A stretch of DNA of 58,949 nucleotides, the filler included, from Dugesia japonica (lineage: Eukaryota), in assembly GCA_001938525.1 (NCBI GenBank). It is 5 parts of 5 records of this genome, joined end to end, with 100 filler letters (N's around TTAATTAATTAA, not from the genome) between each part and the next. Parts side by side here need not be neighbours in the genome. Positions count along the whole stretch, not along the records: positions 39,926 to 58,949 come from MQRL01319692.1; 4 more parts are not named here. One strand, given 5' to 3'. The notes beneath the pieces were generated by a model, which searched no databases, was not told the origin of the DNA, and saw nothing but the letters and a program-made list of their open reading frames with translations. A program made the position numbers and the translations under genes. Position 1 is the stretch's first letter. Each line of letters opens with the position of its first letter. Below are positions 3,723-58,949 of this stretch, in pieces.

Positions 3723-3753
<31 letters not shown>

Positions 3754-10295: not shown

Positions 10296-10688
10296 TTGGC
10301 GGGAAATTCAAAAAAATATTTTTTGGCGGGAAATTCAAAAATTTATATTTTCTGATGAGAAATTAAATTTTTTTTTGGGCAGACTTTATATTTTGCATGA
10401 GATGAGGGTAGTCTCTATATTTTGCAGGAGATGGGGAGAGACTCCATATTTTACATAAGATGTAGGGAGTCTATATATTTTGCATGAAATAAGGGGAGTC
10501 TTTGTGATATTTTCATGATAAAATATATCAAAAAATTTTCAAAGAGGGGAGTCTTTGTGATATTTACATGATAAAATAAAAAAGTTCAAAGAGCCAAGTC
10601 TTTGTGATATTTACATGAAACAATATTCTTATAAAAAAATCAAAGAGGGGAGTCTTTGGGATATTTTCATTGTATGTGTTATGTTTTT

Positions 10689-12758: not shown

Positions 12759-13200
12759 TTAACATGCATGCGTCATGCTTGTGTCGTGTGCAATAAATGT
12801 TTGCATTAAAAAACATAATAAATAATAAAAAAAAAACAAATGATAATAACAACCTTTATTTAAATAATTACAATAATGTACAATTTTGGTCCTAAAGAGG
12901 ACCGGTTAAACGTTCACAAATGTTTTCTTTTTTTGTAGTCATAATCTAAACAAAAACAATTAAAATAACAATTTAAAACCAAATAAATAACTACCATTGT
13001 TTAAGGTTTTGTTCTTGATCAGGCGGAATCGATTGAACTGTTTTATGGAAAAGTAGACTATATGATATAATAGTGACCATATGGGACACTGCTATTTTTT
13101 ACCTACCCATATGCGCTTATCATTTGTATTTGTTAGCGCTAATTATTTCGACTTAATTTTGCCTCAAAAAATAGATGTCTCAATTTGGAATTGTTGTGAA

Positions 13201-13515
13201 ATTGTACCAGAAGCTATAGTAAACAAAGTATTTGAGTAAATAGAGGAAATGAACTAAGTTAAAATACAATTTGGGATACATTTTGAGTTCAAAAGATTAA
13301 CAACAACTGCTGATGGAGAAGAATTTGAGTATAAAACCTGTAAAATATCAAATAGAGCCGTTGTATTAACTGATAACTTTTTTGAAGATGGGATCAACCA
13401 ATTGAATGAGAAAATAACAATACGAAGCGAACTAGGCTCCAGTTGGATGTTGAACAGAATACTTGAAATTAATTTCAAGATTACAAAGGTTGCAAATATT
13501 TCAAACATTCAAATA
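13201..13515 (+). pseudogene. Fragment resembling the N-terminal region of Polinton protein-primed DNA polymerase B
   Basis: VKIQFGIHFEFKR...NEKITIRSELGSSWMLNRILEINFKITK resembles the GSGWxLxxIxxLxIxIxKY motif upstream of the pPolB exonuclease domain; in-frame stops present. Confidence 0.55.
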
Positions 13516-26745: not shown

Positions 26746-28221
26746 TTATTCTGTGGATTCATTGTAATGTATTCCGTACTCAAACAAGTTCTATAAACAA
26801 ATGTGTTATTAATTATAATTTTGAATGTAAATTAAAAATAATGTAGATTAGTTTCTACAAGGAATGAGAAGGTTAAATGGTTGTTATGGACAATTGTAAA
26901 TAAATGTATTATTAAATAGTGAATTCGTTAATAACAATAGATTACCTTCACACAATTCCGCTTAAATAGGTTTTCATCTTCTATCAATCGATGAATAACA
27001 TCTGGAGTGATGCTAATTAAAACAAAAATAAAGATGTATAACCAAGTGAAAGGCTGTTCAAATAGTTCAAACCATGCCCAATAAACATCGTAAGTGTCGA
27101 CTGACCAAATAAAGCCTTGGTACATTAGTAAAAGTAAAAGATTTCCAACTACAGTAACACTAAATCCAAAAAGTGTCGCCCAATTCCAATAGTAGGTCAC
27201 AAGACATAGTTTCAATGAAGTTGTAATCCAAACGATAATTAAAATAATTGTTCCGAAATAATAAAACTGAAGATTTCTTCCGTGATTAGTAACGATATCG
27301 TTTTGATAAATTATCAAAACCGGCCCAAAAATTGCTACTAATGAGTGCCATATGCCGAAGAAATTCCATTTTAAAAAAGATGACCAACTGAGATTTGCGT
27401 TTTGTTTTATTTTTTTGTATAGTTGTGGTTGTTCCATTAATACTTTCGGTGGTATATGCTTCTCCAGCAATCCGTAAATGAAAATCGGTAAAGAAGTCAA
27501 TGTAATGTTGTACAAAACTAGATATAAACTCTCGTACACAGTTTGTGCACTAAATCCAGAGAAAAATGTAAAATAAAATTGAGGACCTATAAAAGCAGTG
27601 TTCTTGTAAAAGAAATACTGGACTAAAGTTGCTATCCTGATGTAATAATAATGTCCGTGTACTAATAAAGCGTTACGCAAAAATTTAAATCTTGGTAACG
27701 CATAATCTCCAGCTCGAACAGCTTGTCGGCCTTCTTTTCCAAATAACCCTATTCCAATATGAGCTTCTAAAATCATGGACACATCGTTAGCCCCATCTCC
27801 GATTGCAGCGGTTACAGGTACAGGAACTTTTGATGATTTAATTAATGAAACCACTTCTGATTTCTGCAAAGGTGTCATTCGACAGCAAAGAACTGCCACA
27901 CACTCAAGGCATAGTAAACGTAATTTATCAATTAGGATTGGCTAAATTATAGTTAAGTAAATTTCTTAACAAATGAAATCTATGTCTCACCCGCAACGCA
28001 ATGCTAAGTGATTGTCCATCAACTATAAGTCCAAACTGTATATTCGGATCTTCTTGTTTATTAATGAGCATTCTTTCCAATTGACTTTCCAAAAAATTCA
28101 TGCAAGAAATAATTTCAGTTTGCTTTGTTACTCTTACCTCTTGTAATTTGGAATGAAAGTGCCCTGTTGAATGACTGATATTGACTGCAGTTTCTTCTTT
28201 ATCACCAGTCAAGATCCAGAC
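26746..28221 (-). CDS. ATP11: Phospholipid-transporting P4-ATPase (ATP11-like), 3' exons: 27991-28221, 26946-27941, candidate last exon 26746-26790
   Basis: VWILTGDKEETAVNI, LIVDGQSL, AVLCCRMTPLQKSEVV, AIGDGANDVSMI, GKEGRQA and YFFYKN, plus six C-terminal TM segments. A 49-nt GT-AG intron (27942-27990) restores the frame. The 5' part lies beyond the scaffold break. ATP11 subfamily is judged from motif recall. Confidence 0.92.
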
Positions 28222-35300: not shown

Positions 35301-37539
35301 TTTGTGATAAAGATATAAATATAATCAAGTATAAAATTATTTTTGTATAGCTTATTTTATTTTACAATGGTTTAATAGTAATAAAGTAGTAAATATAATA
35401 AAAAATTCAGGTTATTAAGGGTTAATTTAATGTTCAATGGAGTTAGAGAATAGGAAATGTCTGCTAATTAAAAAAATGATGAGTTGATAAAATGTATTCG
35501 TTTTTTCCCAAAAAATATTTCCTATATCTCTCAATTATATTCTGCTTAACAAAACTATTATTTGTAGAGTTAATTGAATTTATACTTTTGGCAATTTCGC
35601 CTTTGGAATAATTTTTGAAGTTTGTATGATTGGTTTCATATAATACAAATTTAATTTTCATTCTATTATTTTTCTGTTTTTTTTCGTTGATCAGATATAT
35701 TTGAATGCGTTACAAATGAAATTTCAATTATCGTATAAAAATATTTGATTAAACTTTATTAAAAAAAACGTTATTAAGCAGGAATCTTTTAAAAATGTTC
35801 TAATTGAAAAAGATATTATTGTTTGTTTTATTTTAAAAAATTATAGTTGGGTCATTATTATATTTATATATAATTTATTATAATAGTTGAGAATACGAAA
35901 CTTACTTTGAACTAAAGGTTTTGCTTAATATTTCCATTATCCAAATAATAACAATTTATAAAAAATATTAATGTATTACTGACAGAAATGCGTTATATTT
36001 ATTAACGGTCATTTATTATTTAAAATCATCAATTTAATAAAAAAACGAATTTATCTAATTTCAAATATTAATCTTCAAATTCTCAACGACTTTGAAGAAA
36101 GGAAACATCAAATAATCAAAGAGCTTTTTAGCTAATTATGACTATAACTAATAATGATATTAAAAATAATAATGAATAAAGTGTGTTGTTCACAATGAAA
36201 AAATTCTGGACTAGACAGGAGTATGTTTCAATCAAAGAAATTTCATTTAATAGATAATCCTGTACATTAATAAAATCTAACTAATCAAAGTTTTGTTTTT
36301 AATAGGACAGTTGTTATGAATGATAACTATAGTATTAAATTACAAACAAATAGAAGATTGCATTACGACTTTGTCGGGTCATAGTTGTTAACGCGTGTGA
36401 TTTATTACATGTTTTAACTGTTACGTAAGTCGCTAAGTCCAAATCCATTATTTATATACGAAAAGTTGATTTTAGACACCATCGTATAAAACAATATCCT
36501 TCGGGTATGTTTTTATACCAATTATAATGAAAAACTCATTTTTATTATTATACTAAAGCATTCATATAACTTATAAGAGCTTGATTTAATGTGTATTACA
36601 TGCGACATAATTTTATATATTAATATATGGTAGCAAAATGTTACATTTTTCAAATGGAATTTTTTAAACATGGCTTCATCGTTAGAAATAACTATTTTAT
36701 GAAAATAAAAATATATTTTTCACATAAAATAGAAATATTAAATAAGTTAGGTGAATTCATTAGGTGAATTACTAAAAATCACGTAATTAGTGAAATTCTT
36801 AGNTCTAAATTAAAAGCAATTTTTAAAATTTAAATTCAACCTTTTAATTTCGAATCTTAATACAAAATTTTCTGCAATCAAAAAACAAATTTTATCAAGA
36901 ATTGTTATTGAATTTTCCCATGTAAATCTCTGAAGAAGAGACAAATTAATTAGATTTTCAAAATTGAATAAAGTACACTTTTTGAATTAAATTCGTGTTA
37001 TCAATTAACTTTTCATATCAACTTAAAAGGGCTTTATTTTGATTTATTAGAATGTCTTAATTCAGTCTTTTAAACATAGTGTATAAAGTACATCTGAATT
37101 TCACAGTACACATTTAAATATATTAAGAAAATATGATTATTTTCGATTCTGAATATAAATGGAAAAAACGTTTTATTTATATTATATTTAAAAATTAGTT
37201 TATTAAGAATATTTCAAGATAATTTTCTATTAGCTTTCTATTTAGAAGTTTGATTATGAGCTATAATTTTTTTGATTATGTATATAATTTTTAATTGTTC
37301 GAAAACAAGCATTTGCACAGTATTATGCTTTCGGTATTATCATTACCTAATTATCTTCAGTCATTATGATTTCATTTCTTTTATTATTTCATGTTTGTTC
37401 AATTAGATAACACAAAAATAATCAAATTTCATATTACACTTATTAATCAGTGATTTATAAGAACAATTTGCGTTTAAATAACTTTTCAAATTATTTGCTA
37501 TATTATGAGTTTACTGTCTACATTTTCTTTTTGTAATAG

Positions 37540-37842
37540 ATCTTACAAATATTTTTGATCAGTTTTTACCACAACTTTTGTCATACCCTAATCCGACTGA
37601 TCCATTAAATGGTGAAGCTGCCTCTTTATTCATGTCAAAGCAAAGTGATTATATTGAAAAAGTCAAAGGTACATTTCGCTCATATTCGTGTAGCGTTAAT
37701 AATTGTTTGTATTTAAGAATATGTTAGAAGATATGCCACCGAAGAAGTTCTGAATGGTAATATGGTTGAGGATAACGATTCAGAAAATGAAAGCAGTATG
37801 TCTGAATTCAGTGAAGATGAAGCTCTAGGCATGGAGTTGTGA
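37540..37842 (+). CDS. UBE2H: Ubiquitin-conjugating enzyme E2 H (Ubc8), last two exons 37540-37668 and 37718-37842
   Basis: [28 protein letters not shown]...[10 protein letters not shown]...[17 protein letters not shown] closely matches the UBE2H C-terminus; 49-nt GT-AG intron at 37669-37717. Confidence 0.93.
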
Positions 37843-39925: not shown

Positions 39926-40016
39926 GACCTTGACCTACATTGGTTGCCATGGCAACGGGGGGACCCCCCGTCGACCTACTTTGTTCTGGTGTCCTCCTAC
40001 CTATCTACTCTCTACA
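39926..40016 (-). mobile_element. GC-rich element terminus (Polinton-like TIR end, or start of a 3' LTR)
   Basis: Minus strand reads TGT-AGAGAGTAGATAGGTAGG... It contains a GGGGGGACCCCCC hairpin, the perfect palindrome GTTGCCATGGCAAC (RFX X-box consensus) and AGGTCAAGGTC. Confidence 0.5.
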
Positions 40017-40199
40017 ATTATTGTTTTAATTTGATTTTCTTTATTTCGCCGAATGAATTGATCACTTGATTATTGCTTGTCATTTTTTTTGTCTTCTCTG
40101 TCTTTTCTTTTCTTTCTTTTGTTAAGTTATAACTTTTTATTTCAAGGTTTCCTTAGTCATGGTACATATTTTAGTTTCCTTACCTTGTTTTTTCTTCAC

Positions 40200-41700
40200 T
40201 CATTTTTGCACTTCTGGTACTTCTCCACTTTTGTTGACTGTGGTTATCCCTCCTGCTGTAGGTAGTTCGTACTGTTGTGCAAAGCTGTCATACGGTTCGA
40301 AATAACAATCTCCTTCGTATGCACTTTTGGTACTGACTACACAATATAATTGGCATCTACTAGGCACCAAAATCTCTTCTGTAGTGAATACTTCATGATC
40401 TTTCACATGGGTAAAACCTTCCAGTGATTGTAACCGTAATGTTGAGAAGTTCAATATGCCATTTTTCATCAGGACTGGAAAGATGTCCGTTCCCAAAATA
40501 CACTGTTCTGCCATCTCTACTATGATCATACTGTGTTTAATTTTGTTATCTTGATATTCTACTTCACAGGCTAATTCCCCAAAAATTTTAAGACTACTTC
40601 CATTTGCCACATCCACCGTAGTGTTAGTGGGTAATATGTTTTTGTATTCTGTTATTGCGATTTCTTCTATGGATAACAACGATATTGTTGCTCCTGTGTC
40701 TAATAAAGCTGTTGTGGGTCTACCATTGATTTTAACCCTAATGGTTAATACAGGTCCGCCGTCGAAGCTTGCACATACTACCTCCGAAAGATCACGATTA
40801 GGATTAATTGGTTTTTGGATTTTCCAACTTGGTTCTCGTTCTTGGAATCTTATCCAGTCATCCCTTATCATGGGGGTTGTATTGGTAATTTTCCGACGAT
40901 CTTGATTTAGGTTAGTTTGTTCACCTCTATTAGATGAGAGTTGCTGCTGCTGGTTGGGTGTTGGTTGATTCCATTGCCGTGGTCGTTTTTTTTTAGTTAT
41001 CATTCGAGTTTTCTGATACCCTACTGGTGCATATTCCTGATTGTAGTTTTCCCGTATCATCAGTTTCCTTAAATCTAATATTCCTTCCGGGCATAGGCGT
41101 GGTAAGAGGTCCAGTCCCAATAAGCAGTCGAAAGTTAATTCATTCATTATTTGTAATTTATGCCAAAAACGGATTCCGTCACTTTCTATTGCACATATTG
41201 CTTCTCCAACGGGTGAGATTTTTTCTCCCTTAGTAATTGTTATTCGGAGTAGTCGATAATCTTCTAATATTCTCTTGTGGACTAACTTCGTACTTGCTCC
41301 GTTATCGATAATGGCTATCACCCATCTTCCGTCTATTTTTATCCTTTTTTGTAAAAATTTAGCTCTCTGAGAAATCATCATACACACGGTTTGGGTTTCT
41401 AACTTATCATCTTCAGTGATTTGGTTATTCGGAGAACGCAAGTTTTGGTTGGTCACTCTTCGGTCAATAGTCGATACATTGCTCTCTGTTAATAATGCCA
41501 TATTAGGATCTTGTGGTGGGCTTATATACGGGTTGTTGTACATAGGACCTGGTGCCCATACCTACTGTGGTGGTTGGTTCATGGGTTGCCAACCCTGCTG
41601 TGGATAGGCGTTATAGTACATTTGTGTTGGTGCTGTTGTATTTTCGCTTCCTCCGAATTTTAACGCGTTTCTCAGCCGTTGCATTTTGCTGATTTTTTCG
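40200..41700 (-). pseudogene. Tandem retropepsin-type aspartic protease domains plus post-protease beta-rich region
   Basis: ORF 40200-41543: domain 1 IAIIDNGASTKLV...CLLGLDLL, domain 2 TALLDTGATISLL...CILGTDIF, then ILVPSRCQ...YFEP as seen after PR in some Gypsy pol proteins. Confidence 0.88.
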
Positions 41701-41899
41701 TATTGTTGTCTTTTGAACTCTGCATCTTATTCCATAGCGGTTTTATAACTGAGTACATGGGGTGTTTCACTGCTTTCTCCTTTATCGTCATCGCTGCTGC
41801 TACTACCTTCATCTTTGTTCTTAAATCTTTCTTTAAATGGGCTGAAATATGATATTTTCTTTTTCGCATTGCTCATTTCTTCACAAAATAACCATATTC

Positions 41900-43890
41900 C
41901 ATTATAACTTCCTTGTCTGATCCTCTTATTTGCCCGAGTTTCCTAATGAATCGCTTTACCCTGTCAATGTCTTTGGAGTGACTATTAAGTACCATGGTTT
42001 TGGCTAAGAATGGAAATATTCCGGTTACCATCTTCCAATTTACCTTCTTTTCCCTTTTTTATATGTCAAAGCAGGCAAACAACTGAGTAATCACCACTCG
42101 AGTTACCGAAATTATTAACATAACCCCCAACAATCCTGCCATTGCCTGTCCAAATATGATGAATCGTCCCCACATTTTCCAAATGACGTTTTCTGTGGCT
42201 TTTTGAAAGTAATCTGCTGATAATAATGCGTCGTAATTTACTCGTCCGTCTATGTTAGTTCCACTGGTTAATTGCACTATATTTGATAGAATTTGCATCC
42301 TTCGGACTGGAAACAGCATATATTCCCTAGCTTTCTCTCCATCCTCCCTGCTATAGATTCCTCCTTTATTTATATCAATTGGGGTGAACTGCATACCTCC
42401 ATTTAATCGTAACATTGAGAATTTTCGTGGTTCTACTCCCACTGCCATTCGTTGCGGAAACCTTATCCATGAACTGTCCGTCATTATGTATTGTGGTTCA
42501 AATACATTAGAGCAATTTATTATATTTGGCCTATACCCCAACGGTGATATTATTAGAGTAATTGGTTGCACATATCGTTTCTCGTTGTTATGGATGATTT
42601 CTATCTCATTATAGCAATACTTTGGGTTAGTCGAAAATTTCGCATCTACGGCTTTGCATTTGTATAAGTACATTACTTTTCCTACTACTCGACCAAATTG
42701 CCCCTTTTCTAGAAAGAGCAATGGGGTGACACTATCTGGATTCGTAACTGCCATTGCTAGTTTTGTCTTTGGAATTTCTTTATTCAATGTGCAGTCATTT
42801 TGAATAAGATCGTGGTACATTCGTCCAATGGTATCTTGTATTTAATGGAATAAATTGCCCATTTTTTATTGGCATATAGATGCAATTTGATTTCTTGTGA
42901 CATTACTGCAGCTTGTGCAGTTTTTATTCGATGTTCCGATACGAATATTCCTTTATAATTTGTCTTATATACTATCTGTACACATTTTGACATAGAGTTC
43001 CCTTTAATTAAACAGATGGTATTCTCCTGTTCCGAGGACATTAACACCGTAGGAGTTCTGTGCCATTGTTGATCGTATGATCTCGGACCTAATCTTATCG
43101 TTTCCTTGAGATTATCTATCCTGTCCTTTAGATTACTCTCTTTTGGGGCTTGATCGATAGGTGCTATAGCTCGTTGTCCTTGATATTCATTGAACATTAC
43201 CTCCTTTAAGTGAGCCAACTTGCAGTCCTGATGGTCTACTTTATATGTCAGCGTTGATGTGCCTGTATTGCATGACCCGTCTGCTGCTTTACTATACGAT
43301 CTTCCTTTCATAGTCAAATCTTGAGCGCCGAAAAATGCTTCGTATTCCTTGAGTTCTACTGTATAAGTTTCAATAGCCACTGCATACTGCCATACTTTCC
43401 CTCGTATAGTGTATGTACCATATTCACAGTTACCTTTATGTGAAGATATGCTTCCTGCTGCTTCTATCGGTTGATCAATTACATGCCCTTTCTTAGCGAT
43501 AACTTGAGTCCCATGTTTGATGGCAATTTTACCTGTTGTAAATCATTCATCGCATTGTTGCCCTGTTAGATGTACGGGATGTCTCAGTGTTCCTGGATCA
43601 ATTATCGAGGTATAACTGTGATAACCACAATGAAATATAAATGTCTTTACTGTTATTGTACATTAGCGTACTTGGGCCTTATAATAATCGGACTCCTGGT
43701 ACAAGTGGTAAATAGAATTATTACGGAGTGAGATGTTTTCCGGGTTTGCGTCTGGACATTCCTCTGTATCCACCAATGAAAATACTTCCTTCCCAACTTG
43801 CATCCCATCGCAGTCGTATGCTAATATGGCTTCACTTCTGCCAATCATTAGGAATAGCAAGAGTATTGTAGTGGTTAACGCTTGCAATGA
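41900..43890 (-). pseudogene. Envelope glycoprotein, chuvirus (Jingchuvirales)-like / class III fusogen-like
   Basis: Signal peptide, then ILAYDC...SLVDTEEC, CTITVKTFIFHCGYHS, GNCEYGTY, GKVMYLYKC..V...CYNEI.I...YVQPIT, GGIYS and a TM segment (FIIFGQAMAGLLGVMLII). Cysteine and motif spacing follows chuviral G as I recall it. Confidence 0.8.
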
Positions 43891-46800
43891 GTTTCGGCCA
43901 GGCCCACATGTCCATCCATTCTCAATCTCATTTAACTGATCCCGAACAATCTTGATTACTCTAGTTGCATTTTCATGAGAGGGCTGAGGCTTCGGACATA
44001 TGGCCTAAATAAACTTTTTCCATCTTTCATGCTGTTTTATCAACGGCACTATCTTGTTCTGCATGAGCTCCACTATTGATAGTTTGCTGAGGATGAAGTT
44101 TTTTGACGGCTTACTCCTAGCAATTGAGAAGTGTGTTTGGTTTATCAAATGGGCTATGGATACTACTATCCTTCCCTTCGATGGCTGATCTTGTAATAAC
44201 TCATCCATCACTCCTTTTAAATTGTCTCTTGTGCCATGACTAGTACCTTTAGTGGCGGGAAATTTCTTAATGGCTGTTTCTATTTCTTTTGCCAATGGTC
44301 TGAGACTATCGGATAGTTGAAATTTCCCAATCCATATCTTTAATTCTGGATAAAGCATTAGCAATAGTTTCCGTATTACTACTTCAGTTGACATGTCATC
44401 ATCCGATGAACTCTCGTGGTATCTTTCTTGCGATATCGTTGCTAAACGCTTAGTTTGGTGAGTTATTGATGTTGTTAATCGTTTTTGTTTCAATGCTTCC
44501 TCCTCTCCCGGATTTCCTGGGGGTTTCGTTCTTGGTCTGCCTCTGTTACGAAGTTCAGTAATAGTTTCAGCATCTCCTCGGGTGCGCACTGGTTTTGGTG
44601 GCGCCGCTTCCTCCTCTGTTTCTATTGGATTTTCCATTTCTGTGGGGTGGTTGGTATCCATTAAATCATTCATTACTGAGGATGGCAATTATTTTGCTAT
44701 TCTACTCAATATTGGTGATAATGTTTGTTCTTCTAATATATCTTCCTCGTCTAAGTCTACCTTACTAGGATAATATTTCTTGCTTTGATTGGGCTCTTTG
44801 GCTTTCATTTTCTCCTTTTTTCTAGTTGGAGGGGAGTATTTTGTGATTTGTAACTCATTCCCGTCTTCTGTTGATTCGTCTGCCGATGGTGATCCGAATA
44901 TTTCACGTTCCCAATCTTGGCTGGTTTCTGTATTTGTAGAAATGTATTTTCACCTGTTTTATGTCCATCAAATGTTATTTCTCTTCAAACTTTATGGGGA
45001 ATCTCAGATGATCGCTTGTGATTATTTAACTTTTCTGCTGGTCGGCTATATCTAATGTTTCTATAATTTCGTCCAATTCCCCAGCTGATGTATTGTTGAA
45101 ATGTGGTATATGTATGACAGCCAATTTTGGTTCCTTCCTGGGTTTTTTATTTGGTGTCAAATATTCTATCGTGACCTGAAAATCCTCACCCTTGGCACTT
45201 GTCTTCACCGTACCAATTTACGGCTTGATTACTAATTCCCATTTGGCACGTTCTTCCTTTGCTATTTCAATATACTTTGCCAGATCCATTAGTAAATTTA
45301 ATGCCTTCCAAAACGCTGCCTTAGGTATCCTTTCCTGGAAATAACAGAAATCCGAAATTATCTTCGATATCCGCTCGGTCTGAGGGGAACTGAAAGGGCT
45401 CCACAAATTCTTGTTTAAATGGTAACAATCGGGGTTGGATGATGTCCTCCACAGTTTCTTCCTCCTTCTCATCTTCATCTGCCGCTAGGTCTGTGGTTTC
45501 ATGGTTATTATCCCGAACATGTTGATTTAGGCTTTGTTTTCTCCATATGTATTTATGAGACGTTCATTCTCTATTGGTAAAATTTCTTGTATATATCGGC
45601 TCATCATATTGAATGAGAGTTGATCGGTGTCCGGCATTTTTGGTATCGGAATGTCTATGGTCATTTTCGGCGGCGTTAGCTTGACCTCCGTGATCTCTCT
45701 TGGTTTAATATCATGCAGAAAGATATGATCCTCCTTTTTTGCTAGTATGATCATGGTTGCTCCTGCTTGTATTTTATATGATTTGATTGATTTTGGCCAT
45801 AACCATTTCTTGATCGGTTTTATTATATGGCGGATAGTTAATCCCTCCAGAGTTATCATATCTACCCTTTTTATACTTCCCTCTTTACTGAGGAGGATGA
45901 CTCTTATAGAATAGTCTGATATGGTGGATGTATTTTGTACTTCCTCTTCATATAAGGTTTTCTCTTTCCACCATTGTGCTCAAACCCACAAGCTGAGTTG
46001 TCCATAGATTGCCAAATTCTGTAAGTTATTCATCATTTTCCAATATACTTTGATATTCACTACTGGTCTAGTTTCCCGTGTTACTCTTAGTAGATCGTTG
46101 ATAGCGTGAAACGTGGCGGATTCCTCCGTTATTGGTTTCGTATAGTTCATCCGAATATCACGTATTGTTGGTGTCCCTTCCTGAAATACATCTGATTTTG
46201 TGGTAATTATTGGCAAGTTATCAATATTCTGTATTTTCTGATTTTCTTTTACTTGTTCCTTTTTACCTGCCAATACTTCGGATACGTATAATTCTGTTAT
46301 CTCTTCTATTCTCTCCTCAAGATCTGGCGATTGGTCTGTCCGTGGCTCCTCTTCTAATTCACATATTTCTCCGGGCTTTGCATGGCATTGGAATATGTGT
46401 TTGTACTCGTCGTCGGTCTCAACCAATTTGCAATTTATGAACAGAGGTACCATGTTTAGTCCTTGTTCTTGCCACATATCGGTAATGGCATCCATTAAAT
46501 CCATCATGGTTATTCCTCGTGGTTTTAATCGGCTGTATTTAGTCAGTTCTTGGTCATTTTTACCTATATTCAAATATAATTTATAGTCCTGAATTTTGGT
46601 AGTCGCCAATATTTCTTCGGCAAACTTCTGTCTAATCATGAGCCATTATTCCTCAATTTCCTTCGGTATTTCTAGCCCATCATATATGTCGTAAATTCTA
46701 TTCATTATCATCCAATATGTTTCTCGGGGTAGCTTTTCTTTTTCTGTCTGTACTCGGTTGACCATTTTCTCCACTTTACGCATCGCTACTACCTCTCTTG

Positions 46801-48220
46801 CTGGCATTTGCCGCATCCTTATCATGTTGCATTTACATTCTCTTCTCTCCAAACGTTGTTTGAGAAAATCGTTTCGCGTCATCAATAAATGTTTCCTTTC
46901 TTCCTTTGTCAGTTTGTCTTTCTTCCCTAATACTGTAGAAAAAATCTTTATTTTAATAGGTTCCACCTCTTGTTTATATAGATATTCCATTTCCCCCATG
47001 ATTTCTAGTGCCGATCTTCCAGTTTTTGTTATCCATATGTCATATTCGATGCCAGGGTGTTTGTCCAATATTACAATTACAATTTCTTCTCCTGGTTTTA
47101 CCCCAAAATCGTATAGATGTCTTTTTCTGGCATTGAAATCCACTATAGCACTTGCAGTACATAGGTATTTATCGGTTATGCATGGATAGCCTACTTGATT
47201 AAGCACCGCTTCTAGATCTTCTACCATTAATCATGTGAGTGTCAATTTCATATTTCCTTCTGGGTTATATAACCATACTTGGTAGTCTCATAATCCCCTG
47301 TTGGATATTACCAAATCATAATGCACTGGTAACCATTCTGTCCAATTGCTTTCACAATCAGTGATCAGTTGTATAACTTCCAATAATTCAACCAATCGAT
47401 TGGTCAACTTTAGGTATACATCCTTCTTTATTGTATCATGGAGTTTCTGGGCGGTTACCAGTATCTCATCAATTCGGGCTAAGGATAGTCGTGATGCTTC
47501 ATTTTGTTCCAATTCCGGATAGTTTCACTTTCTGTAATCTTTTCCGTAAGTAATTTTGAGCCTGGAGAGGAACTATTTCCTTTAAGAATGTTTCTTCGAG
47601 ATTATGATATAACTCGTCCGTTTCTGTTTCTTGAATTAATGTTTGTGGTTGGAATACCAAATCCCAATTTATCAATTTAATTATTGTAGTTTCCTGAGGT
47701 TGTGCCCCGTAATAAATTAGGTTCCTATCGTCGGGAAGAATGTTGATTCCTATATTACTTATTTGCAATCTGTGCCTATTCCACTTTCCATTCCATTGTT
47801 GCTGGGCGTTAAACGGTGGTAATTCGAGAAACGGGTTTATAGTCATATCCTTGATGCCATTTACTTCACTCCATTTTATCTCGTTAATTTCCTCTTTCAA
47901 GTGCCGTATCGTCATTCCTTTTAGCGGTAGCTTTAGTCGTTTCGGAATAACCTCGAGATTGTTATGCCATACATATTGAACTTCAAATTCGTAATCTTCC
48001 AACTTAGTTTCTTTATAAAGCTCGGTGATATAATCCGATATTGTTTTCTGCCAGTTAGCTTTTACTTTTGCGGGTACCTGTGGGTGCTGGTATAATCGAA
48101 GTAACTGATTCATCACCCGCCTTCTTCCAGTGGTTGTGTGGATGTTTCTATTGTCTTATAGATGATTTCATTGGTCCACTAGAATTCTGGTGATGTAATC
48201 AGTATTCGCTTTCGAGTATC
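43891..48220 (-). pseudogene. Inter-gag/env polyprotein region with repeated ubiquitin-like modules, acidic linkers and an AT-hook-like RGRPR
   Basis: ORF pieces 47499-48116, 47288-47512, 46646-47227, 45980-46639, 45527-45859, 45218-45478, 45026-45208 and 44005-44688; most adjacent pieces share a frame across single stops. Confidence 0.6.
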
Positions 48221-49471
48221 TTACATTTTGGTAACTTCTGTTGTTTCGTCATGTTGGTTATAAATTTGTCTATGTGTTCTAACCATATTACATTGATTCT
48301 TGTGTGGTTCGTTTAACAAGTTTCTTTTTGCCAGTCTCTCTTGCTGTACTTGCAAGTCTTGGTTTTGCCACTTGAGCCAATCATTTTCTTGTTGCACTTT
48401 GTGGTACACATTGTCAAAAGTACTTTGATGCACTAAATTGACTTGTCTCTTGTTTTGATTTACTCGTTGTCTTAATCTCTCATTTTCCTGCATTAGAGTA
48501 TCCAAATTTGTATTCGGATTCCGATTATAATTTTTTTGGTTTCCGTTCTGACATTCTTTTGCCATATAGCCTCTTCTGTTACACTTGTAACAGACCGTTG
48601 GATTTTTCAAAAAACAAGTTTCTATGTTGTAGTTGGTTCTCTTGCAATAAGTACAAAATCGGTTGTTGTTATTATTACTGCCTCTACTTCTACAACCTCG
48701 CGCAATATGCCCCTTTCTTCCACGGGAATTGCATTGTATATCTCGATTATTTTGCCAGTTATTCCGAGGTACATTAAATCCTCCACAATTTCCTCGGGGA
48801 TAGTTAGGTCTATCATTCCGGTTATTCCGTTCTTGGCCTGGGGTCAGGATTTTCATCATTGATTGCGTATTGGATATGAAATCTGATATCCGTGGTGTAG
48901 TTTCCTCTGTCTGTCCGTCTAATTTGAATATTCGTTCTGATAGTCTATCTGCTAAAATTCGCAATGTGGCCAGAGCGTCCTGTAGAGTCACTGGCTTATT
49001 CAATTTTACCATTAGTTTGGCGTTCTCGTCGCGTAATCCATTTAAAAAAATGGTGAGTACTTGACTGTATTCCAGCTTGTCTCCTAAGGCTAATTTGCCA
49101 CGCCTTTTGAGTTCCATCATATACGCTTGTGGAGTTTCTCGTCTTTGTTATTTTCGATTGGTAAATTGTTCGAAATCCTGGCCAGTCAATTTTAAATTTT
49201 GAAAATTATCGGTTAGTATTTTCACTCCCTCTTCCCATTTGTCGAGAATGGCTTCCATGCCCTTAGTGTGATCCCAGAACACCGTTTTGGCTACTCCTGT
49301 TAAGTAAGCTGGTAATCGCTTCCTTTTGGCTTCCTCGTCCCAACCACAGGTTTTGGCATACATTTCGTAATTTTGAATAAATTCATCCAGCTTTTCAGGT
49401 ATTCCGCTGAAATATTCACCATCAAATTTTATTTTCCACTCCGGTCGATGGTTTTCAGTTTTGGTTGTCAT
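48221..49471 (-). pseudogene. gag: Gag (capsid-like region plus three CCHC-type knuckles)
   Basis: FSG..EKLDEFIQNYE...WDE..K...LPAYLTGVAK.., RK*QRRETPQAYMMEL and FLNGLRD. Knuckles CNSRGRKGHIARGC, CTYCKRTNYNIETC and CYKCNRRGYMAKEC. The two ORFs are in the same frame across one TAA. Confidence 0.88.
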
Positions 49472-50319
49472 GTTGTTGTCCTTTGCTGTGTTGGTTTCTA
49501 TTTTCGGGTTTTTAGTTATAACTGGGGTGGTTTTGTTTATTTGGTTATCGTTTATTAAAGTTAAAATTTCGGTGCTTCCTTGGTTACTACCTATTATCTC
49601 TGTCTCTTCTGAGATATAACTTAGTTCGCTTAATCGGTTTTTATCCGTAGGTGGATTACTATGGGTTCGCTTCTGGATTATTCTATTTTCTTTGTCACTT
49701 GGGCTACTGTTTGAACTGATGGTAGCAATTCTTCTTTATTCTTTTCCCAGTTTTTTACTCGGCAGTAGCCAAGTTTATATTTCGAATTTTTTATTTTGAC
49801 TTTTTTATGAAATTTGGCGGTTGCCAAGAAATTTACATTTAAATTTTTTCAATTCTTATTTGTAATTTTTTAATATTAATTGTCTATTATTTTTAATTGA
49901 TTTCTTATTTTCTATACTAATATTTTTAATATAGAATACACACAATTATATACATGTATGTATGTATATACACACCCTTTCCTTTTTAAAATAAAAAAAT
50001 AAAACAATTACATTATAATTGTGTTGTAATACCCGAATATATAATTGTGTAAAAAAGGTGTATCAATTTATTAAGTATAATTTTATTACGTTTAAATCAC
50101 TTATCCAGTAAAATAAATCTAGTTTGAAATATTTAATCATTTTTTAATTCATCTATTTTAGGATAATACTCAGTCATATAGTTTCTTGGTTATATTTCTT
50201 CTGTTCTTTAGTAGCAATTTGATTTATCTGAATTGAAATATTAAAGTAATATCAAAGCAATATTCAAATCTTACTGCATTATGGATTACTGCAACTATTT
50301 TCATGATACTAAGATTGTT

Positions 50320-51500
50320 TACATTAGTATAGCTCTGTCCGATGAAATTTGAATTTCATTTTTTAATACTATAAATTATTACATATATGCAGGCATTTCC
50401 AAACTTGATATCTAATCTCACATTTCTTTGTTGGGGCAATTGACTCTGATTAATATGGATATCCGGAGCAAGTGCAAAGGTAAATAATGGATATTCATTT
50501 GTAAACTCCTCAAGTGTTATTCTACATTTCATATTCTTGTTTAGATATCTCATATTTCTAACTATTGCTTGAATGTATGATGTGTTATAATTATCATTTT
50601 CAAAGTCTAGAGTATATAATTCTCGATAATCACTGTTTTTAGATAGAGTTATAGATTTGACATTGAAATAATCGAAATTTAAGCTTGATGTTTTAAAGTG
50701 ACCATTATATCTATCTCTATTTTGAAATGTTACCAACAAAAAGTTACTAGCGATCTCCAAAGATTTGCTCCTTATAAAACGTTGAACCACCTTTGCTGAT
50801 TGCATAAGCCACAATTTTCTAGGTTTGTATTGGATGACCTGTTAGTACTGATGATTCAAGTTGAACTCTTCTAACCATTAATTTTGTATCAAGCAATAAA
50901 AATTTTGTTTCTTCAGTTGACGTTTTTGAACCCATTATATTGGCTGCTAATTTCATTCGAATGTGTATATTGACACCACGAATAAGATATTTTGGTGGAT
51001 CCATGAAATCTAGCTGCAAAGAACCACATAATGACAACGACGTTGATAATTTAATCGACTTTTGTCTGTCTTCTTTATCCTCATTACCGATTGCTGCAAG
51101 ACAAATGTTCTTACTATCTCCATTATAATTCAAAACAGTTTCAATCATAGCCTTCTGAATATGAATTTTGTTGCCACCTTCAATTTTGATATTGTTGAAT
51201 GAAAGAATAACATCTTTAAACATAGTATGAAACAAAACGTTGCTTGTTACTACATCAGACTTTTCACCCAATTCTTTTCCAAATTTTTCGACAACTTTTA
51301 CTTGTAAATACAATAAAGTATCATTCAAATCTAGATAATTAGTTTGAGATGCATATATAAAAAACTCTACATCATTTCTCATTTTGGAAATTGAATTCAT
51401 TGGAAACACATTTTCAAATGATCCATATTCAATAACACCTTGTGGAGATGGACGATCAAAAATGCATAGTTCAGATTTTCCACAAATTATTTTTCAAATA
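50320..51500 (-). pseudogene. Polinton major capsid protein (double jelly-roll), internally deleted/frameshifted
   Basis: KSELCIFDRPSPQ..IEYG, VEFFI..SQTNYLDLNDTLLY.QVKV, HTMFKDV, YLIRGVNIHIRM and C-terminal ITLEEF..YPLFTFALAPD...NVRLDIKF...IIYS, typical of Polinton MCP. Confidence 0.88.
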
Positions 51501-51599
51501 TAGTTCTATAGCCCTATTTCCGTTTGATTATACATAATATGATTGATTTCTTGAGTTTAATTACAGTGCTTTCATGATTTGTATAATTTTATGGTATTA

Positions 51600-51954
51600 A
51601 TTTGGAAAATTCGCTAGAATCTATAAAATTGTTGAATTCAGACATTGCATTTGCTTTCAATTGAGGCAAAAGTTTTCATTTATTTGAAATCACACCCTGA
51701 CCTGTTTTTATATCAATAGCTCCAATACGTCTAAAAGTAGACAAAGCTAATCAACCAATTGTTTGCAACCATCCGGAGCCATACTGTTTTCCTACAAAGT
51801 ATGGTAATTGTCCCCCAGCTTCACTAGTACTATACAATGAGATATTATCAGGATTAGACATTTTTTCGAAAAAAATTGTTAAATGAGTTTTTGAGTCTTT
51901 AGTAAAATTGATTAAATTTCCGTTATCAACTATAACTTTAGTAAATTTCGCCAT
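51600..51954 (-). pseudogene. Polinton putative virion core protein
   Basis: GGQLPYFVGKQYGSGWLQTIG resembles the F.G...Q.G.G motif of small Polinton/adintovirus core proteins found between ATPase and MCP. Confidence 0.6.
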
Positions 51955-51979
51955 TTATAAATGAAATAAGAAATTAAGT

Positions 51980-52495
51980 TTATTGTTTATATACGGTAAC
52001 ACCGTTTGGATCGAAAATATCAGTTCTCACTATAGGTTCATCTGAAAATTGTTGTTTAAAGTCTATAAAAATATATCCATGAAGATTTACTGTTGCATCT
52101 TTGAATGAATCCAAAGGAAATTGCGTATTTTTTGGAAATGCTTGTCTTGCAAGAAAAGCAACAGCTGTTTGATCTCTTGACTTTTTAAATATAACCAAGT
52201 ATTGTACATTTAAATTCCGAGTTCTATGTCCACCTCCTTGATGGAATATATTCCAAGTAATAAATATTACAGTCACATTACAATGTCTTGATATCTTCGT
52301 GAATAAATTTTTTAAGTGATTTTCCTTGTTTGCTTCCTTGTATAAATCATCAACAACAATCACATTACCTTTAGTTATTCTCTTGCTCAAATTCTCATCG
52401 AAACCGTTTATAATTTTCATTATTGTATCACAGAATTCAGAATGAGTTATTCCACGTTCTTCATCAGCTTCTCAATGCATATATTATGTTAAACT
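51980..52495 (-). pseudogene. Polinton FtsK/A32-like DNA packaging ATPase (Walker A half lost)
   Basis: VIVVDDL (Walker B), NLFTKISRHCNVTVIFIT.NIFHQG...RT.NLN.QYLVIFK..RD, HGYIFID and VRTDIF. Confidence 0.92.
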
Positions 52496-52497
52496 TC

Positions 52498-52665
52498 GTT
52501 ATCGATTTGGAATATTTAATAAATTTATATGAATTAACAAGAAGAACTAAATGCATGTATGAACCTGAATTATTTCCTGCGTTACGACTTATATAATTCA
52601 ATCCATTCTGTGTAAACGTATTTTTATCTGGAAAAATAGTCTTTTATAGGAATCAAAACATTAGA
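52498..52665 (+). pseudogene. TATA-binding protein (TBP)-like core repeat fragment
   Basis: VIDLEYLINLYELTRRTKCMYEPELFPALRLI*FNPFCVNVFLSGKIV, then a frameshift into IGIK. This aligns with TBP repeat 2 (DVKFPIRLEGL...SYEPELFPGLIYRM..P..VLLIFVSGKVVLTGAK). Confidence 0.75.
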
Positions 52666-55600
52666 TTATCAACCTCAAGTCGATGTTGTGATATCTGATT
52701 TGAATAATTTCATTATGAAAACTAAATCAATGCAGAAAACAAAATCAATACTTGAACAAAGCATGCACATTGATGCATGAAGCATGCACATTGCAAAACG
52801 TAAACAAAAGAAGATGACCAATATAAGTTAAAATGATAGAAATGTCTAAAGAAATGTTCATAAATCAAATGGTTAAATATGAGTTACACTATTGAATGCA
52901 AAAATATGGATACAGGTTTTAATGATGATGATGAATTTTCAGAACATGATGAATGCAGTAAATATACAATACCTAAAGAAAATAAATATCATGTTCATGA
53001 ATTTGATAGAGTAAAAGGTTAGTTTATTTTATAACTTTAATTAATTAACTAATTTGTTTCGAGTAATTGTTAAAGATATTTTGGAAGAACAATTTTATAA
53101 TTTAAGAAATGATTTATTGGTATCATATCAAAATGTATACCAGAGTTGACATAGAAAAAAACCATTAGAAAATACTTTTATACTTCCCATATTCGTGCAC
53201 ATGTTGTCAACTAACGAAACTTAGAAGGATTGTAATCAAATTTATTAAATAAATCTTGGTTAATGAATCTTGTTTTCATTGTGTTTGTACTATTAATTGT
53301 TTTATGTACAATAATAAGACAACAGTAATAAAACACATTAGTAATAACTAAACGACATATTCAAATTAAAATATTTATTAATATAACACTTCTATTCTAT
53401 CTTTTTAATACTTTGTACTTTCCATATTGGAGCCACATTGTTTTCCAATGTCTTATATCCTAGTATTTGACTGTAATAATTGATTTACTCGAATTTTCGT
53501 AGGGGATCTCTTCCTTCAAGCTGATGAATGATATATTTAATCTTTCTATAAATTAATTAATTCAGGAAAACCACATTTGATCTCACAAGATGATGATATA
53601 TATTATCTATATATATCTTCTGTAAGAGTAATGAATTTCAATTTTAAACAATTTTAAACAAACTACATATTTATATAGTATTAAGTGTGTGTGCGTGTGT
53701 TAGACAACTGTATGTGTGTTTCAAATTAAATCAGTAAAACAAACGATTTATTAATTTAATTTTTATCAAATTTCATTTATATTAAATTTATATTTTATAG
53801 TTAATATTGTCCGGGGAACATTAATAATAATATTGCGCGGGAAAATTTAATGTAAATATTGTCGGGGAGAAAATCAGATTCGATAAATTTTGTTTAATTT
53901 AAACAAACATAAGCTTTTCAATTAATTTCCAAGAAGAAACTCAAAAATTATTAATTTCATTAAAATTAAACAACTAACCATTTATCTCGACTCATTTAAA
54001 CAAAGAATAATTAAACCACTTGATTTAAACAAAAATAAATAATTTCACCTCATTTAAACAAAAAACACATCAATTAAAAAAAAATTTCAAAAATTTTTAT
54101 GTAATCATTGCATAAAAATGACATCGTCATTACGCAATCACGACGTCGTTAATATACCGATTAAATTTCGATCAATCAAATTACAGTATTACTGCCACAA
54201 TTACGTTATCATCCAAAAAAAAGTCTGATCAATTAAATCGTTGGAAATCAAATTTCTACCGCAAAAATGATAGAGGGCAGCGGTACTGCAGCAGTATGGC
54301 AGTAGTTTGGACCTATCTATTTACTACGATAATCCGTCTTTAGAAAATGATCTTGATGTTATTTGTTCAGATGTATTATTTTTCATTTAAATAAATGACA
54401 GACTGACAACATTAAAATATAAATTTATTTTGATTTACAGAAAGACTTAGCCAAATATATCTTCCTCAGAGATCGTGATTGTTAGTGGTACGATTGGCTT
54501 TTTCTGTGTATTGGTCAACACCGAGGATTCTGGATCGGCAAGTTCAAGAACAGTGATAATTCGCGATGACGACTGTCGTTTCCACAATCTCTAAGAACTT
54601 AATTTGTTTTCATAAACAAATTGTTTCACGCCAACATATTTATAATTTTTACGATAATTATTTGATTTTGGTTTATATTGATTATTTGACGATTCCGAAT
54701 CTTCCAATATTGAAATAAATAAACTTGGCTACTGCCGAGTAAAAAACTGGGAAAAGAATAAAGAAGAATTGCTACTAAAATTTAAAATCAGAAAAGAAAG
54801 AAATATGGCAACGGCCAATTGGAGAATAGAAGTGTTAAATAAAATCAAATATTATATAATATCAAATCAGCAGAGAAATATAGTCATCGAAAATATCTAA
54901 TTGTTTTGGAATTTAGTATTATCAAATCTATCCAAAAACCATCCATTTTAAACAACTCAACCAAATCCACTAGACAGTTCTTAATCAAAAAATTAGTAAA
55001 TTTCTTTTAGTTCAATATTTTAATAAATTTGTTAAAAGTTCTGTTAACTTAATTTTTGCATTTTTATTAGAGGTACTTTAAACTTATTATATAATATTTT
55101 AATCTTTACACACAGCATACATCCCGGTTGTCCCAACATAGAGACAGGAGGCGCTTCCTGCCTCAACAAATGTCTCTACAAACAAAATTTAACCAAAAGA
55201 AGAAAGGTTTAAAGAAAACTAACTTATATTAACCTAATAACAATAAACAACACAAACTTATAACGATAGATAAAGATAATATCAAAAATTAAGATCATGA
55301 TAATATCATGATTCAATATTGCGCCTATATTTGGATTGGGTGATAGAAATAAAATAAATGTACTACTAATTAAAGCATACATCGGAAAGCCGGACGAGTT
55401 TGACGAATATTTTTAAATATTAATTTAAACTAAGCATATAATTGGACGAATAATTGATTGATAAAAAGACTACCATCATATTTGAATGTTTTTGCACTAC
55501 AAAGTTACAAGAATATAAAAAAGTCCCTTGCAATATTTGAGGATTTGAAATCAGAACTTAGAGAACTTATAATAATTTCGTCAGAAAGAATATGTATAAT

Positions 55601-56127
55601 AATATAATTAATAAAGTACATAATTAGAAAGAATATGTATACAAAAGTTTGGGAACTGAATGCAAAGAACGTAAGAATCAATGAAAATATCTCTATAAAT
55701 GGTAAAGCTGACATTTTCAATATTCTAATTCTCCTATTCATTGTATTTACAAACATTAATAATGTTTTTCCAATGCTTCCTTTTTACATCTATGAAGATT
55801 AGATTACCACAAACAAAATGTTTGATAATTTCAAGTAAATCATCAATCAACACAATAGAAATGAATGCATAATTTTCGATGATTTAATCAAAGCGGTAAA
55901 GAGCGGAACACTTCTTTTCAATTTCATGTTTTTTATATTTTAATAACACATGTATGCATACATACCAGTCCATTGTTTATAATGATATCCATTTTCCATT
56001 GATTTCTTTTTCCATTTCCACTGTCCACTCTATTTTGCAAGTTTTTTATCTTTCTTATTTACATGTCGTTTCTTATGCGATGTCTTTCTCTTTTCAATAA
56101 ACATAATTGAAAGTTGTTCTGGTTTAT

Positions 56128-56805
56128 AATTGTGACAGAGATAAGAAATGAATAAAATATAATAATCCAAAATCAGAAATTTCATGGGTAAAGCCAAGAG
56201 AACCATCAAAATCGCTCACAAATTCATATCATTTCGGAAACTGATGATGCTCGGCTTCTGATGAGATATTAAGGGAATGCTATTTTCCAAGATAATGGAA
56301 CCCAATTAAACAGTTTTTTCTAAACGCAACTAACACTATTAAATCCGATTAAGTCAATATTTAGAACTCAAACGCCCATATAGTAAAAAAGAAAATCTAC
56401 TTTATAATGTTACTTGAAAAGATGTTTGCTTGACAATTCTAAGACACATATTGCTTCAAAAACAAAGGACACCGTAATAAAACTTGGCTAGGAAAATTTA
56501 GAAGGCAAAGAATATTTAACGGACATTATTTCAACTGATTATTATTTGTTCCTAACGATACAGTACGCCTTTTGCGATACAGACTTTGAATCAATGGATA
56601 TCATCCGAAAATGGATTGACAGATTAATCAAGTCTAAATAATCAGAATTGTTTTTAGAAGGAATTCATCAGCTACCAGTAAGATCGCTTAAAGATATCAA
56701 TAACAATAACGGTGTTTTTTTCTGATTGAATAATTTGTGACAAATGCCTTTGTTATAAAATTTGAAATTAGCTGAAAAACTTGAATTATTTATTTGTAGA
56801 CCAAA
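56128..56805 (+). mobile_element. mariner transposase 3' remnant with TIR
   Basis: IVT.D.K*IKYNNP, WVKPREPS, ML.F**DIKG and YS.DY.C..D..LF-like segments; terminal TTATTTGTAGACCAAAT resembles a mariner TIR. Confidence 0.75.
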
Positions 56806-57002
56806 TTTTTAAAAGAAAGCGCTAAATAAAATATCAGATTCTAAGAATTTGAAATATTTATTAAAAATTAAATACTAAATAATTAATTACTAATTTTAAA
56901 TAATTTTTCACCAATACAAATTCAAAGATATTAAAAATATTTGAAAACATTCTTTATTAATACGAGTTAATTATGATAATATTAAATAACTAAAAATTCA
57001 AT

Positions 57003-57293
57003 ATGAATACTGATCAGGTCAAATGTAAAATTCATTTGGAAAATACAAATGAGTATCATCTCAATCCATCAATATTGAATTATAAAATGGAAAGAAAGTT
57101 TTCAATGAAACGACGCTATTCTACATTATTTGAAACTGGTAAATGTAATAATAAAGAATCAAATTTTGAAAGATTAGATTTGAGAAAGTTTCCTGTTAAA
57201 CGCAGGTATTCTAAATTATTTGAACCAGAGAAATTTATGGAAAAAATATTACCTATTTCTCAATTAGAATTAGCAATTAAAATCACAAAATAA
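57003..57293 (+). CDS. Small intact ORF (96 aa) with internal duplication, next to Polinton integrase
   Basis: ATG-to-stop ORF containing RKFSMKRRYSTLFE and RKFPVKRRYSKLFE. Confidence 0.4.
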   Translation: MNTDQVKCKIHLENTNEYHLNPSILNYKMERKFSMKRRYSTLFETGKCNNKESNFERLDLRKFPVKRRYSKLFEPEKFMEKILPISQLELAIKITK

Positions 57294-57419
57294 ATCCAAA
57301 TACTGTAAAGAAAGTGAAATATTTATACATATATAAACCTTTATCATTATTAAATTGTTGTATTTTATTATAATTTACTTAAATCTTTAATTTGTTGGTG
57401 TTCTATATTATTTATGTTA

Positions 57420-57715
57420 TCTTAAAATAAGCCAATACAGCCACAGTATAAAGCTGCATACGTAGAGAGATTAAATCGTATATCAAGAGATGCACTGGAA
57501 AAGTACTTTGTATATTTTAGTAATAAAACTTGGATAAATGTTTAACTGAAACATATTCATAGTTACAATCATTCGAGTCACAAATTTTTAAATAGAGCAA
57601 TACTATTTGATAACAATCACTTAAAATCGTGGTTATCAAGAACACATTCAAAAGCAAATAAAAAACCAAATTTTAAAGTTGGTGAATATGTGAGAATATG
57701 GAAAATATCAGCTTT
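57420..57715 (+). pseudogene. Polinton integrase, C-terminal half
   Basis: KAAYVERLNR...KYF...NKTWINV...SYNHSSH...KPNFKVGEYVRI. Confidence 0.85.
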
Positions 57716-57739
57716 ACCATTTATCAGTAGTTTTTAATT

Positions 57740-58125
57740 AGACTAGTTTTCAATATTCCATCTTCAAACATTAACTTGATTGCAGCTTCCATTTCAATTG
57801 CAGATTTTGACTTGACTGGAAGAGCTCTCGCAAATCTGCTAAACACGTCGATACATGTTAAAATGTACTTGTAACCTTTATTAATATTTGAAAAAGGTAT
57901 CATTTATATCAAATTAATTTGTCATAAATCGTCATCACCAATTTTTTTATTCAACCTTGTTGGAAATTTTTTCAGCATTTGTTTGTTTAGACTATACGCT
58001 AGTTGACCTGATAGCCCCGTTTGCGTATTGTCTTTCAAATTTTGTCTTGCTTTCCATATATTTTCGACTCCTTTGAATCCTGCTGAAATTTTTGGATCTG
58101 TCCATATCACCTTGGTTTTATTCAT
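57740..58125 (-). pseudogene. Polinton integrase, N-terminal half
   Basis: WTDPK.SAGFKG...QLAYSLNK...KFPTR...DDL*QINLI..NKGYKYILTCIDVFSRFARALPVKSK, the typical Polinton integrase N-terminus. Confidence 0.88.
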
Positions 58126-58949
58126 TACAATAATTTGGTGCAAATCTTAGATTAATTGAAGGTAATGATTCTAAATTTTCCATTGAGTATATCAAATTTG
58201 ATATATATTGTTGAAATTGATATGCAAAATTTGTCACATGATTTATAAAATTAATAATCGAAACGTCCTAATGAAGCACAGAATAATAATTGTGGAATTG
58301 ATGATGGGCTTTTATACTAACTACATTAGTTATAACTGTTTCTTCTTTGATTCTTGCTCATTTAATCCATAACATTGATGTCTAAAATGTACTTGTTTAT
58401 GAAAATGTGAGCAATTAACATTCGCACATTATTGACATTTTATTTCTATACAAGCCTAAAAATAATTTGAGTAGAAAGAAATTTTTTTATGATTTTATGT
58501 TTGTTTTAGGTTTAAATTAAATTAAATGTCGTGTGAAAACATTTCATTTATTTCATGATTCAATTTGTTCTAAATATTATTTATAAATTTTCAACAGGAA
58601 ATGAAACTCAACTAAATTAANTTAATAATTAATTTAATTCAATATTATTGGTTTAAAATTAAAATTATTTAATAATTAATTTCTATTTCAAATATTGAAA
58701 ATAATAAAATTAAAAAATCATGGCATATATAACAAATAATGAAAATAATATTCAACTAAAAATTTAATGTTGTGAAATGATGAATGCAACGCAATTGGAT
58801 ATGAATATTAAATATTAAAAAATATTAAAAGTATATAACAATGAAAAGCATAATAAATATGATTGTAAACAAAATAATTATTATTATCATAATAATTATT
58901 ATTATTATCTTTGAAATTATTTAAAAATCAAATCTAACATTCTATACAA

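Follow-up and report, generated by a model that had tools for sequence, protein, structure and literature searches.

A broken compact TBP-like gene in a Dugesia japonica Polinton remnant, and its intact relatives as putative promoter-specificity factors

The window, a stretch of 58,949 nucleotides of Dugesia japonica DNA (filler included), carries the dead, non-functional half of a gene for a TATA-binding protein (TBP)-like protein in the remnant of a Polinton. With a probability of roughly two in three, we propose that this is a dead copy of a resident Polinton gene, the intact product of which likely binds the promoter word TATAAAC and directs host RNA polymerase II (Pol II) to the genes for packaging, capsid, and protease. 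Virus-encoded TBPs are a known kind of protein, and what is new here is their compact variant in Polintons. The pertinent features of the window are:

52486..52647, plus strand: repeat-2 fragment of the broken compact Polinton TBP-like gene, from matches to Pfam, the PDB, and the intact family protein P0003
52646..52780, plus strand: C-terminal helix region of the same TBP-like gene in another frame (23-aa match, 39% identity to P0005, E 0.002)
51980..52483, minus strand: A32-like packaging ATPase, 5'-truncated (62% identity to the ATPase of the related locus L003)
51984..51991, minus strand: the word TATAAACA, 37 nt before the ATG of the pVII-like gene and overlapping the last ATPase codons
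51601..51954, minus strand: small core-protein-like gene with stops, located between penton and major capsid protein (MCP) genes in relatives and presumably of the kind called 'pVII-like'
50359..51493, minus strand: MCP in two broken frames (41-47% identity to the L003 protein)
53800..54328, no strand assigned: subterminal repeats and probable right terminus, from contig depth and ACTAC at 54323-54327
57444..58146, no single strand: Polinton-type integrase, split into two pieces of opposite orientation and located beyond the terminus; a candidate for belonging to the same copy

The peptide singled out by the sequence-only reading is indeed present at this place on the plus strand, and its TBP identity is not due to chance: the Pfam TBP model (PF00352) recovers the fragment with E 1.2e-6 (28.7 bits; gathering cut-off 22.9), the 35 PDB sequences that it matches at E<=1 are without exception TBPs or fusions of TBP, and its closest relative, P0003 (151 aa), is 65% identical to it (E 1.7e-14). 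The peptide as quoted in that reading is, however, restricted to repeat 2, is interrupted by an in-frame stop at 52594-52596, and ends in a 'GIK' that belongs to a different frame. The frame break lies near 52640-52650, after which the C-terminal helix resumes in the other frame up to ~52780, while the first half of the gene is absent in the window, with the similarity to P0003 becoming convincing from ~residue 72, near 52489. It is because of the stop, the frame break, and the deletion of the first half that the copy is dead. The fragment contains the acidic TFIIB-binding loop of repeat 2 and a C-V-N motif typical of the family at the position of V203-L205 of cellular TBP. Raw RNA sequencing runs returned 1432 matched reads in X11 (3 of them >=99% alike and 1185 under 90%) and 102 in X14, which come mostly from other copies and both strands and are uninformative on the expression of the window copy.

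The claim that the fragment abuts a truncated packaging ATPase is borne out: the ATPase similarity on the minus strand reaches 52483, the TBP similarity starts near 52489, and the two genes thus stand head to head at ~52484-52489. The ATPase remnant has lost its first ~43 residues, including the Walker A motif, and has a stop near 52472. This arrangement marks a deletion that took away the 5' ends of both genes together with the DNA between them, and the undeleted divergent layout of ATPase and TBP-like gene is found in the related loci L013 and L051. One contig of sequencing run X1, which may derive from the source sample, covers 52392-52672 and differs there by 2 letters and 1 gap; as it spans the junction, the latter is not peculiar to this assembly. 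The possibility that a minus-strand frame across from the TBP fragment (52464-52643) encodes the missing ATPase start was rejected (E 0.23). The genes flanking the fragment are 41-62% identical to those of intact relatives, and a model of the L003 capsid protein matches double jelly-roll capsids (best E 5e-13).

A Polinton-like terminus near 54325 had likewise been proposed, and the sequencing contigs concur with it. The X1 contigs matching 50200-54700 number 11,232, with 9,251 of these under 95% alike, and their summed depth, which delimits the element edge and is not a copy number, is about 300-4,000 at 53824-54276 versus 44-100 beyond 54277. The many divergent contigs and the fall of depth to background after ~54280 therefore indicate a repeated family ending near 54325, where we take ACTAC to be the canonical Polinton end motif. 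Within the window, we found neither a left terminal repeat partnering the probable terminus near 54328 nor a match to the protease alongside the ATPase and MCP remnants, and pPolB and integrase occur as displaced pieces only. A tblastx search of 52700-54400, 49800-50400, 54400-57400, and 58100-58949 against 70 loci gave 0 matches. CRE/ATF-like words were noticed by eye in the subterminal region at 54118-54150 and could be host-factor sites for early genes.

The fragment belongs to a sizable family of compact proteins. Of 188 candidate proteins, 182 are retrieved at E<=1e-3 in a search with P0003, which itself scores 55.7 bits against PF00352 (cut-off 22.9); the family ORFs are mostly 144-165 aa long and display the TBP fold throughout. 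At E<=1e-30, a profile built from 77 family sequences recovers 61 cluster representatives (clustered at 50% identity); at 1e-10 the number rises to 759, with ordinary TBPs among them. In JGI metagenomes, a scan for the family yielded 66 loci, a redundant and non-independent set in which many have near-identical relatives, and a Polinton core gene (ATPase, pX-like, integrase, penton, pVII-like, capsid, protease, or pPolB) lies beside the TBP-like gene in 26 of these and in 15 of the 23 that are at least 3 kb long. Another 24 loci have one of two neighbor genes that are tied to core genes elsewhere, and in 14 mostly short ones the TBP-like gene stands alone; two of the 66 (L065, L066) were discarded as spurious 25-residue matches. 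The linkage to Polinton genes suggested as a check by the sequence-only reading is thus present, and matches are not confined to a single-copy host gene, the situation that it had named as fatal to its proposal.

Approached from the opposite direction, a search of genome_contigs with the ATPase alone found four loci (L067, L068, L069, L070), of which L067 also carries a gene of the compact family; no TBP-like gene was seen in L069 and L070, both incomplete. The A32 ATPase, double jelly-roll MCP, and adenain-type protease are present in the loci of the relatives, as are further conserved genes without a Pfam family. L003, L012, and L067 also have pPolB and an rve integrase, where the PolB assignment is our presumption from sequence motifs (Pfam detects only Endonuclease_7 there, and the L003 pPolB has no PDB sequence match). 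Scans of viral_contigs and tblastn of GenBank phages gave no relative and hence no close TBP-less Polinton as a control; the comparison loci L068 and L070 are distant Polintons, the latter incomplete. Several other genes were observed in these loci. L068 encodes a different, 184-aa TBP-like protein (11571-12122, minus strand; Pfam E 1e-36) that has two complete repeats and retains the F99 equivalent; P0271 and P0294 look similar to it. A conserved ~120-aa neighbor of the TBP-like gene (L003:1788-2138 and homologs) has no Pfam family, 'SSB-like' being a guess; upstream of several of these genes is a GTA donor followed by a T-rich tract and AG, so they may be spliced. By eye, L012:222-719 (minus strand) resembles a ubiquitin-conjugating enzyme gene inside or beside the Polinton.

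The family protein is predicted to fold into a saddle of two repeats, the first of which has lost both of its helices. An AlphaFold2 model of P0003 (77-row alignment, pLDDT 95.9) aligns over 148 of its 151 residues with human, yeast, and archaeal TBP (PDB 5fur, 7o4i, 1mp9) at Z 12.8-13.0, with an rmsd of 2.6-2.7 for the human and yeast structures, as against a best non-TBP Z of 6.7. When aligned to yeast-type TBPs, with numbering from the C-terminus, the family likewise lacks both repeat-1 helices. Cellular TBPs, at ~180 aa, are longer than the family proteins (~150 aa) and share 22-27% identity with them. The DNA-intercalating Phe residues, which the sequence-only reading had suggested inspecting, are kept at three positions, F116, F190, and F207, in 77/77 sequences each, and the fourth, F99, is replaced by Pro in 77/77, as judged from sequence alignment in a gapped region. 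With invariance among the 77 sequences inflated by word-based retrieval, the acidic TFIIB-binding loop retains E188 in 77/77, E186 in 74/77 (3 D), and L189 in 72/77, and P191 is kept in 69/77; N69 is kept in 74/77 and the N159 position is Ser in 75/77, so that the symmetric Asn pair of canonical TBP is not found. Polar residues replace V122 (R, 76/77), V71 (N, 74/77), and L205 (N, 77/77), and near-invariant replacements extend to A101Q, T124M, V161T, I194R, V203C, and T215L. Table 1 of PMC12529657 lists most of the replaced positions as contacts of TBP with DNA. As judged from these alignments, the family retains three of the four intercalating Phe on a DNA face more polar than that of cellular TBP, and DNA bending could be weakened in the absence of F99 and the two repeat-1 helices. 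Relatives of 150-190 aa (P0209, P0243-P0293) have R122, N205, and mostly P99, and many of them keep the repeat-1 helices, making them possible intermediates in reduction.

Phylogenetic analysis indicates that the compact family is a clade of its own outside the eukaryotic TBPs. In an 87-row quick tree, the window fragment, although filling 29% of the columns in trees where long branches meet, falls within the compact clade with 100 SH-aLRT support, and in a 49-row LG+C20 tree with 96/91. A long stem (100/99) leads to the compact clade and its ~150-190-aa relatives and separates them from the eukaryotic TBPs (100/97), which are here represented by fungal, plant, and protist-type rows, with no animal TBP or TRF2 and no named NCLDV row; the L068 protein branches next to the compact clade (98/74), without starred support. 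Across 37 non-independent pairs (dS 0.1-1.2) drawn from 54 coding sequences, dN/dS has a median of 0.20 (range 0.11-0.45), which shows that the family is under purifying selection. Linkage, trees, fold, and dN/dS support the earlier proposal of a long-resident Polinton TBP without an origin from a host pseudogene.

The intact relatives also supply a candidate target for the protein. In de-duplicated regions, TATAAAC(A), a word picked by eye from the same set in which it was later counted, is present in the 80 nt ahead of 34 of 56 structural-module genes, as against a mean of 1.2 and a maximum of 5 in 200 shuffles, and 0 on the reverse strand. It precedes most ATPase (10/12), pX-like (7/8), and MCP (6/7) genes, an unnamed gene after the protease (6/10), and protease genes (3/5), is rare before penton (1/6), pVII-like (1/5), and integrase (0/3) genes, and is found before just 1/40 TBP-like genes and 0/17 of their usual neighbor. 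The TBP-like genes are instead preceded by canonical TATAWAWR in 17 of 40 cases versus 3.8 in shuffles. Of 45 ATAAAC sites, 28 lie 32-39 nt ahead of the ATG. The held-out locus L067 has 11 sense and 0 antisense copies of TATAAAC, with an ORF start 15-110 nt downstream in 8 of the 11, while L068 and L070 have 2 sense and 2 antisense each, with no strand bias. As 37 sites are intergenic and the others fall in two reading frames (24 and 20), the constraint is on the DNA. The window retains one site of this type, before the pVII-like gene; that expected before the capsid gene is not intact.

We accordingly regard an element-encoded promoter-specificity factor, analogous to the TBPs of herpesviruses and with putative binding to TATAAAC, as the best reading. 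Host TBP/TFIID would transcribe the TBP-like gene early. Its product would then bind TATAAAC via the three Phe and the polar face, where V122 has become Arg, V71 and L205 Asn, and F99 Pro, and the intact EPELF loop would recruit host TFIIB and Pol II, with an early/late switch as the outcome. With the polarity that TBP adopts in TBP-DNA crystal structures, base 7, the point at which TATAAAC departs from the TATA consensus, would lie opposite the altered repeat 1. The more specific notion of a widespread Polinton lineage with a minimal (~150-aa), asymmetric TBP of altered specificity, which evolved together with TATAAAC as a late promoter of its own and joins host TFIIB and Pol II directly, could as readily prove wrong as right. 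The sequence-only reading's suggestion that the protein redirects transcription to virion genes is supported indirectly, by TATAAAC upstream of structural-module genes; it would apply to the relatives and not to the non-functional half-gene of the window, and the family departs from an ordinary TBP in its reduced repeat 1.

A resident Polinton gene might alternatively encode a decoy or repressor that sequesters TFIIB and other TBP partners or occupies early or host TATA boxes, leaving TATAAAC to host TBP. We take the C(-25) variant of the AdMLP TATA box to equal TATAAAC. Cellular TBP was crystallized on this variant, going by the title of PDB 1qn3, and given this, host TBP may itself read the word; that the TFIIB loop is the best-kept part of a protein devoid of F99 and both repeat-1 helices would also suit a decoy. 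Yet the replaced residues of the DNA face are near-invariant (R, N, N, P, M), suggesting new contacts rather than decay, and TATAAAC is seen in elements with the compact family and is absent as a bias in L068, which together render this alternative rather unlikely. We hold it improbable that the protein binds element DNA for some other job, such as at terminal repeats or in replication or packaging, with TATAAAC read by another element-encoded or host factor. The elements do carry additional conserved genes without a Pfam family, and replication initiators, too, have TBP-like folds (Z 6.7), but the conserved EPELF loop would be unneeded outside transcription, and the word is both TATA-like and at TATA-like spacing.

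The brokenness of the window copy, and trees that lack an animal TBP or TRF2 row, leave some room for a processed pseudogene of host TBP or TRF that inserted by chance into a decayed Polinton. This is highly improbable: the fragment does not nest within the sampled fungal, plant, and protist-type TBPs, its closest similarity and tree placement are with the Polinton-linked family, the C-V-N motif replaces the cellular V203-L205, and L013 and L051 have the same divergent layout. The linkage and residue data refute a host pseudogene, barring an animal chromosomal paralog that has this motif.

Among known systems, the Nucleocytoviricota TBPs are likewise virus-encoded and provide the best viral fold matches (E to 1.7e-8), with an Atlas cluster containing 59% viruses scoring 0.95; they differ in sharing 8-21% identity with the Polinton family. 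Nucleocytoviricota mostly encode their own RNA polymerase, and no RNA polymerase gene was seen in the family loci examined. The beta/gamma-herpesvirus vTBPs (EBV BcRF1, KSHV ORF24, HCMV UL87) are reported to have a polar DNA face and to read the late-promoter word TATTWAA with host Pol II (PMC12529657, PMC4893493). The Polinton protein would be analogous to them in its viral TBP fold, polar DNA face, and non-canonical promoter word. ORF24 is large, has several domains, and forms part of a complex of six members; it requires all four Phe (PMC12529657) and lacks the TFIIB acidic residues, whereas the Polinton protein consists of one minimal domain that keeps these residues and has three Phe. The vTBP layout of a Pol II-binding N-terminal and a DNA-binding C-terminal domain is not found in the family ORFs, the fold matches to herpesvirus proteins are weak (BcRF1 E 0.012, U58 E 0.008), and we make no claim of homology. 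The elements themselves resemble Polintons, Mavericks, and adintoviruses in their pPolB, rve integrase, A32 ATPase, double jelly-roll capsid, and adenain-type protease (PMC8502044). In that work, Starrett et al. (2021; preprint 10.1101/697771) use the label 'TBP' for a gene in the figure legend of a MELD virus map, without discussion; it is the single occurrence in the main text as available, which describes no TBP family, structure, or promoter word, and the available supplement has 0 matches to TBP, TATA, or the family motifs. The literature on Polinton/Maverick TBP and TATAAAC that our search covered, from which most subscription papers and the Repbase reports fell outside, has no description of the family or the word.

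Other elements and genes were noticed elsewhere in the window, the repeat content of which by itself suggests an AT-rich eukaryote and probably an invertebrate as the host. A Gypsy-like LTR element at 39926-49860 (minus strand) has gag-like ORFs and several unexplained ones, as well as a Monjiviricetes-type fusion glycoprotein (42062-43542, E 2e-45) with an aspartyl protease downstream of it (40200-41561), an unusual order; 64 nt from the end of the LTR element are found again in inverted orientation at 54712-54775. At ~10500-14400, inverted repeats enclose an element that contains tandem arrays rich in purines as well as an N-terminal fragment of pPolB (13249-13500, E 3.5e-10 to L003) and is possibly a non-autonomous Polinton derivative. 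A long uninterrupted coding stretch for the C-terminus of a P4-type phospholipid flippase (26928-28221, minus strand, E 7e-67) is either a host exon or a retrocopy, and 37509-37727 (plus strand, E 2e-5) is a probable exon of a host ubiquitin-conjugating enzyme.

The window copy is a fossil, and its value lies in the family to which it leads. A matched factor and promoter word render testable how the capsid genes of Polintons are activated and whether these elements have any early/late program like that of true viruses. The family protein further offers a natural test of TBP minimization, with one Phe and two helices lost, and of a change in specificity. If the proposal is true, the longer L068 TBP and the intermediate 150-190-aa forms would mark steps in the reduction of TBP, and the compact protein would constitute a single-gene switch for late transcription and the first regulatory circuit to be defined for the virion genes of Polintons.
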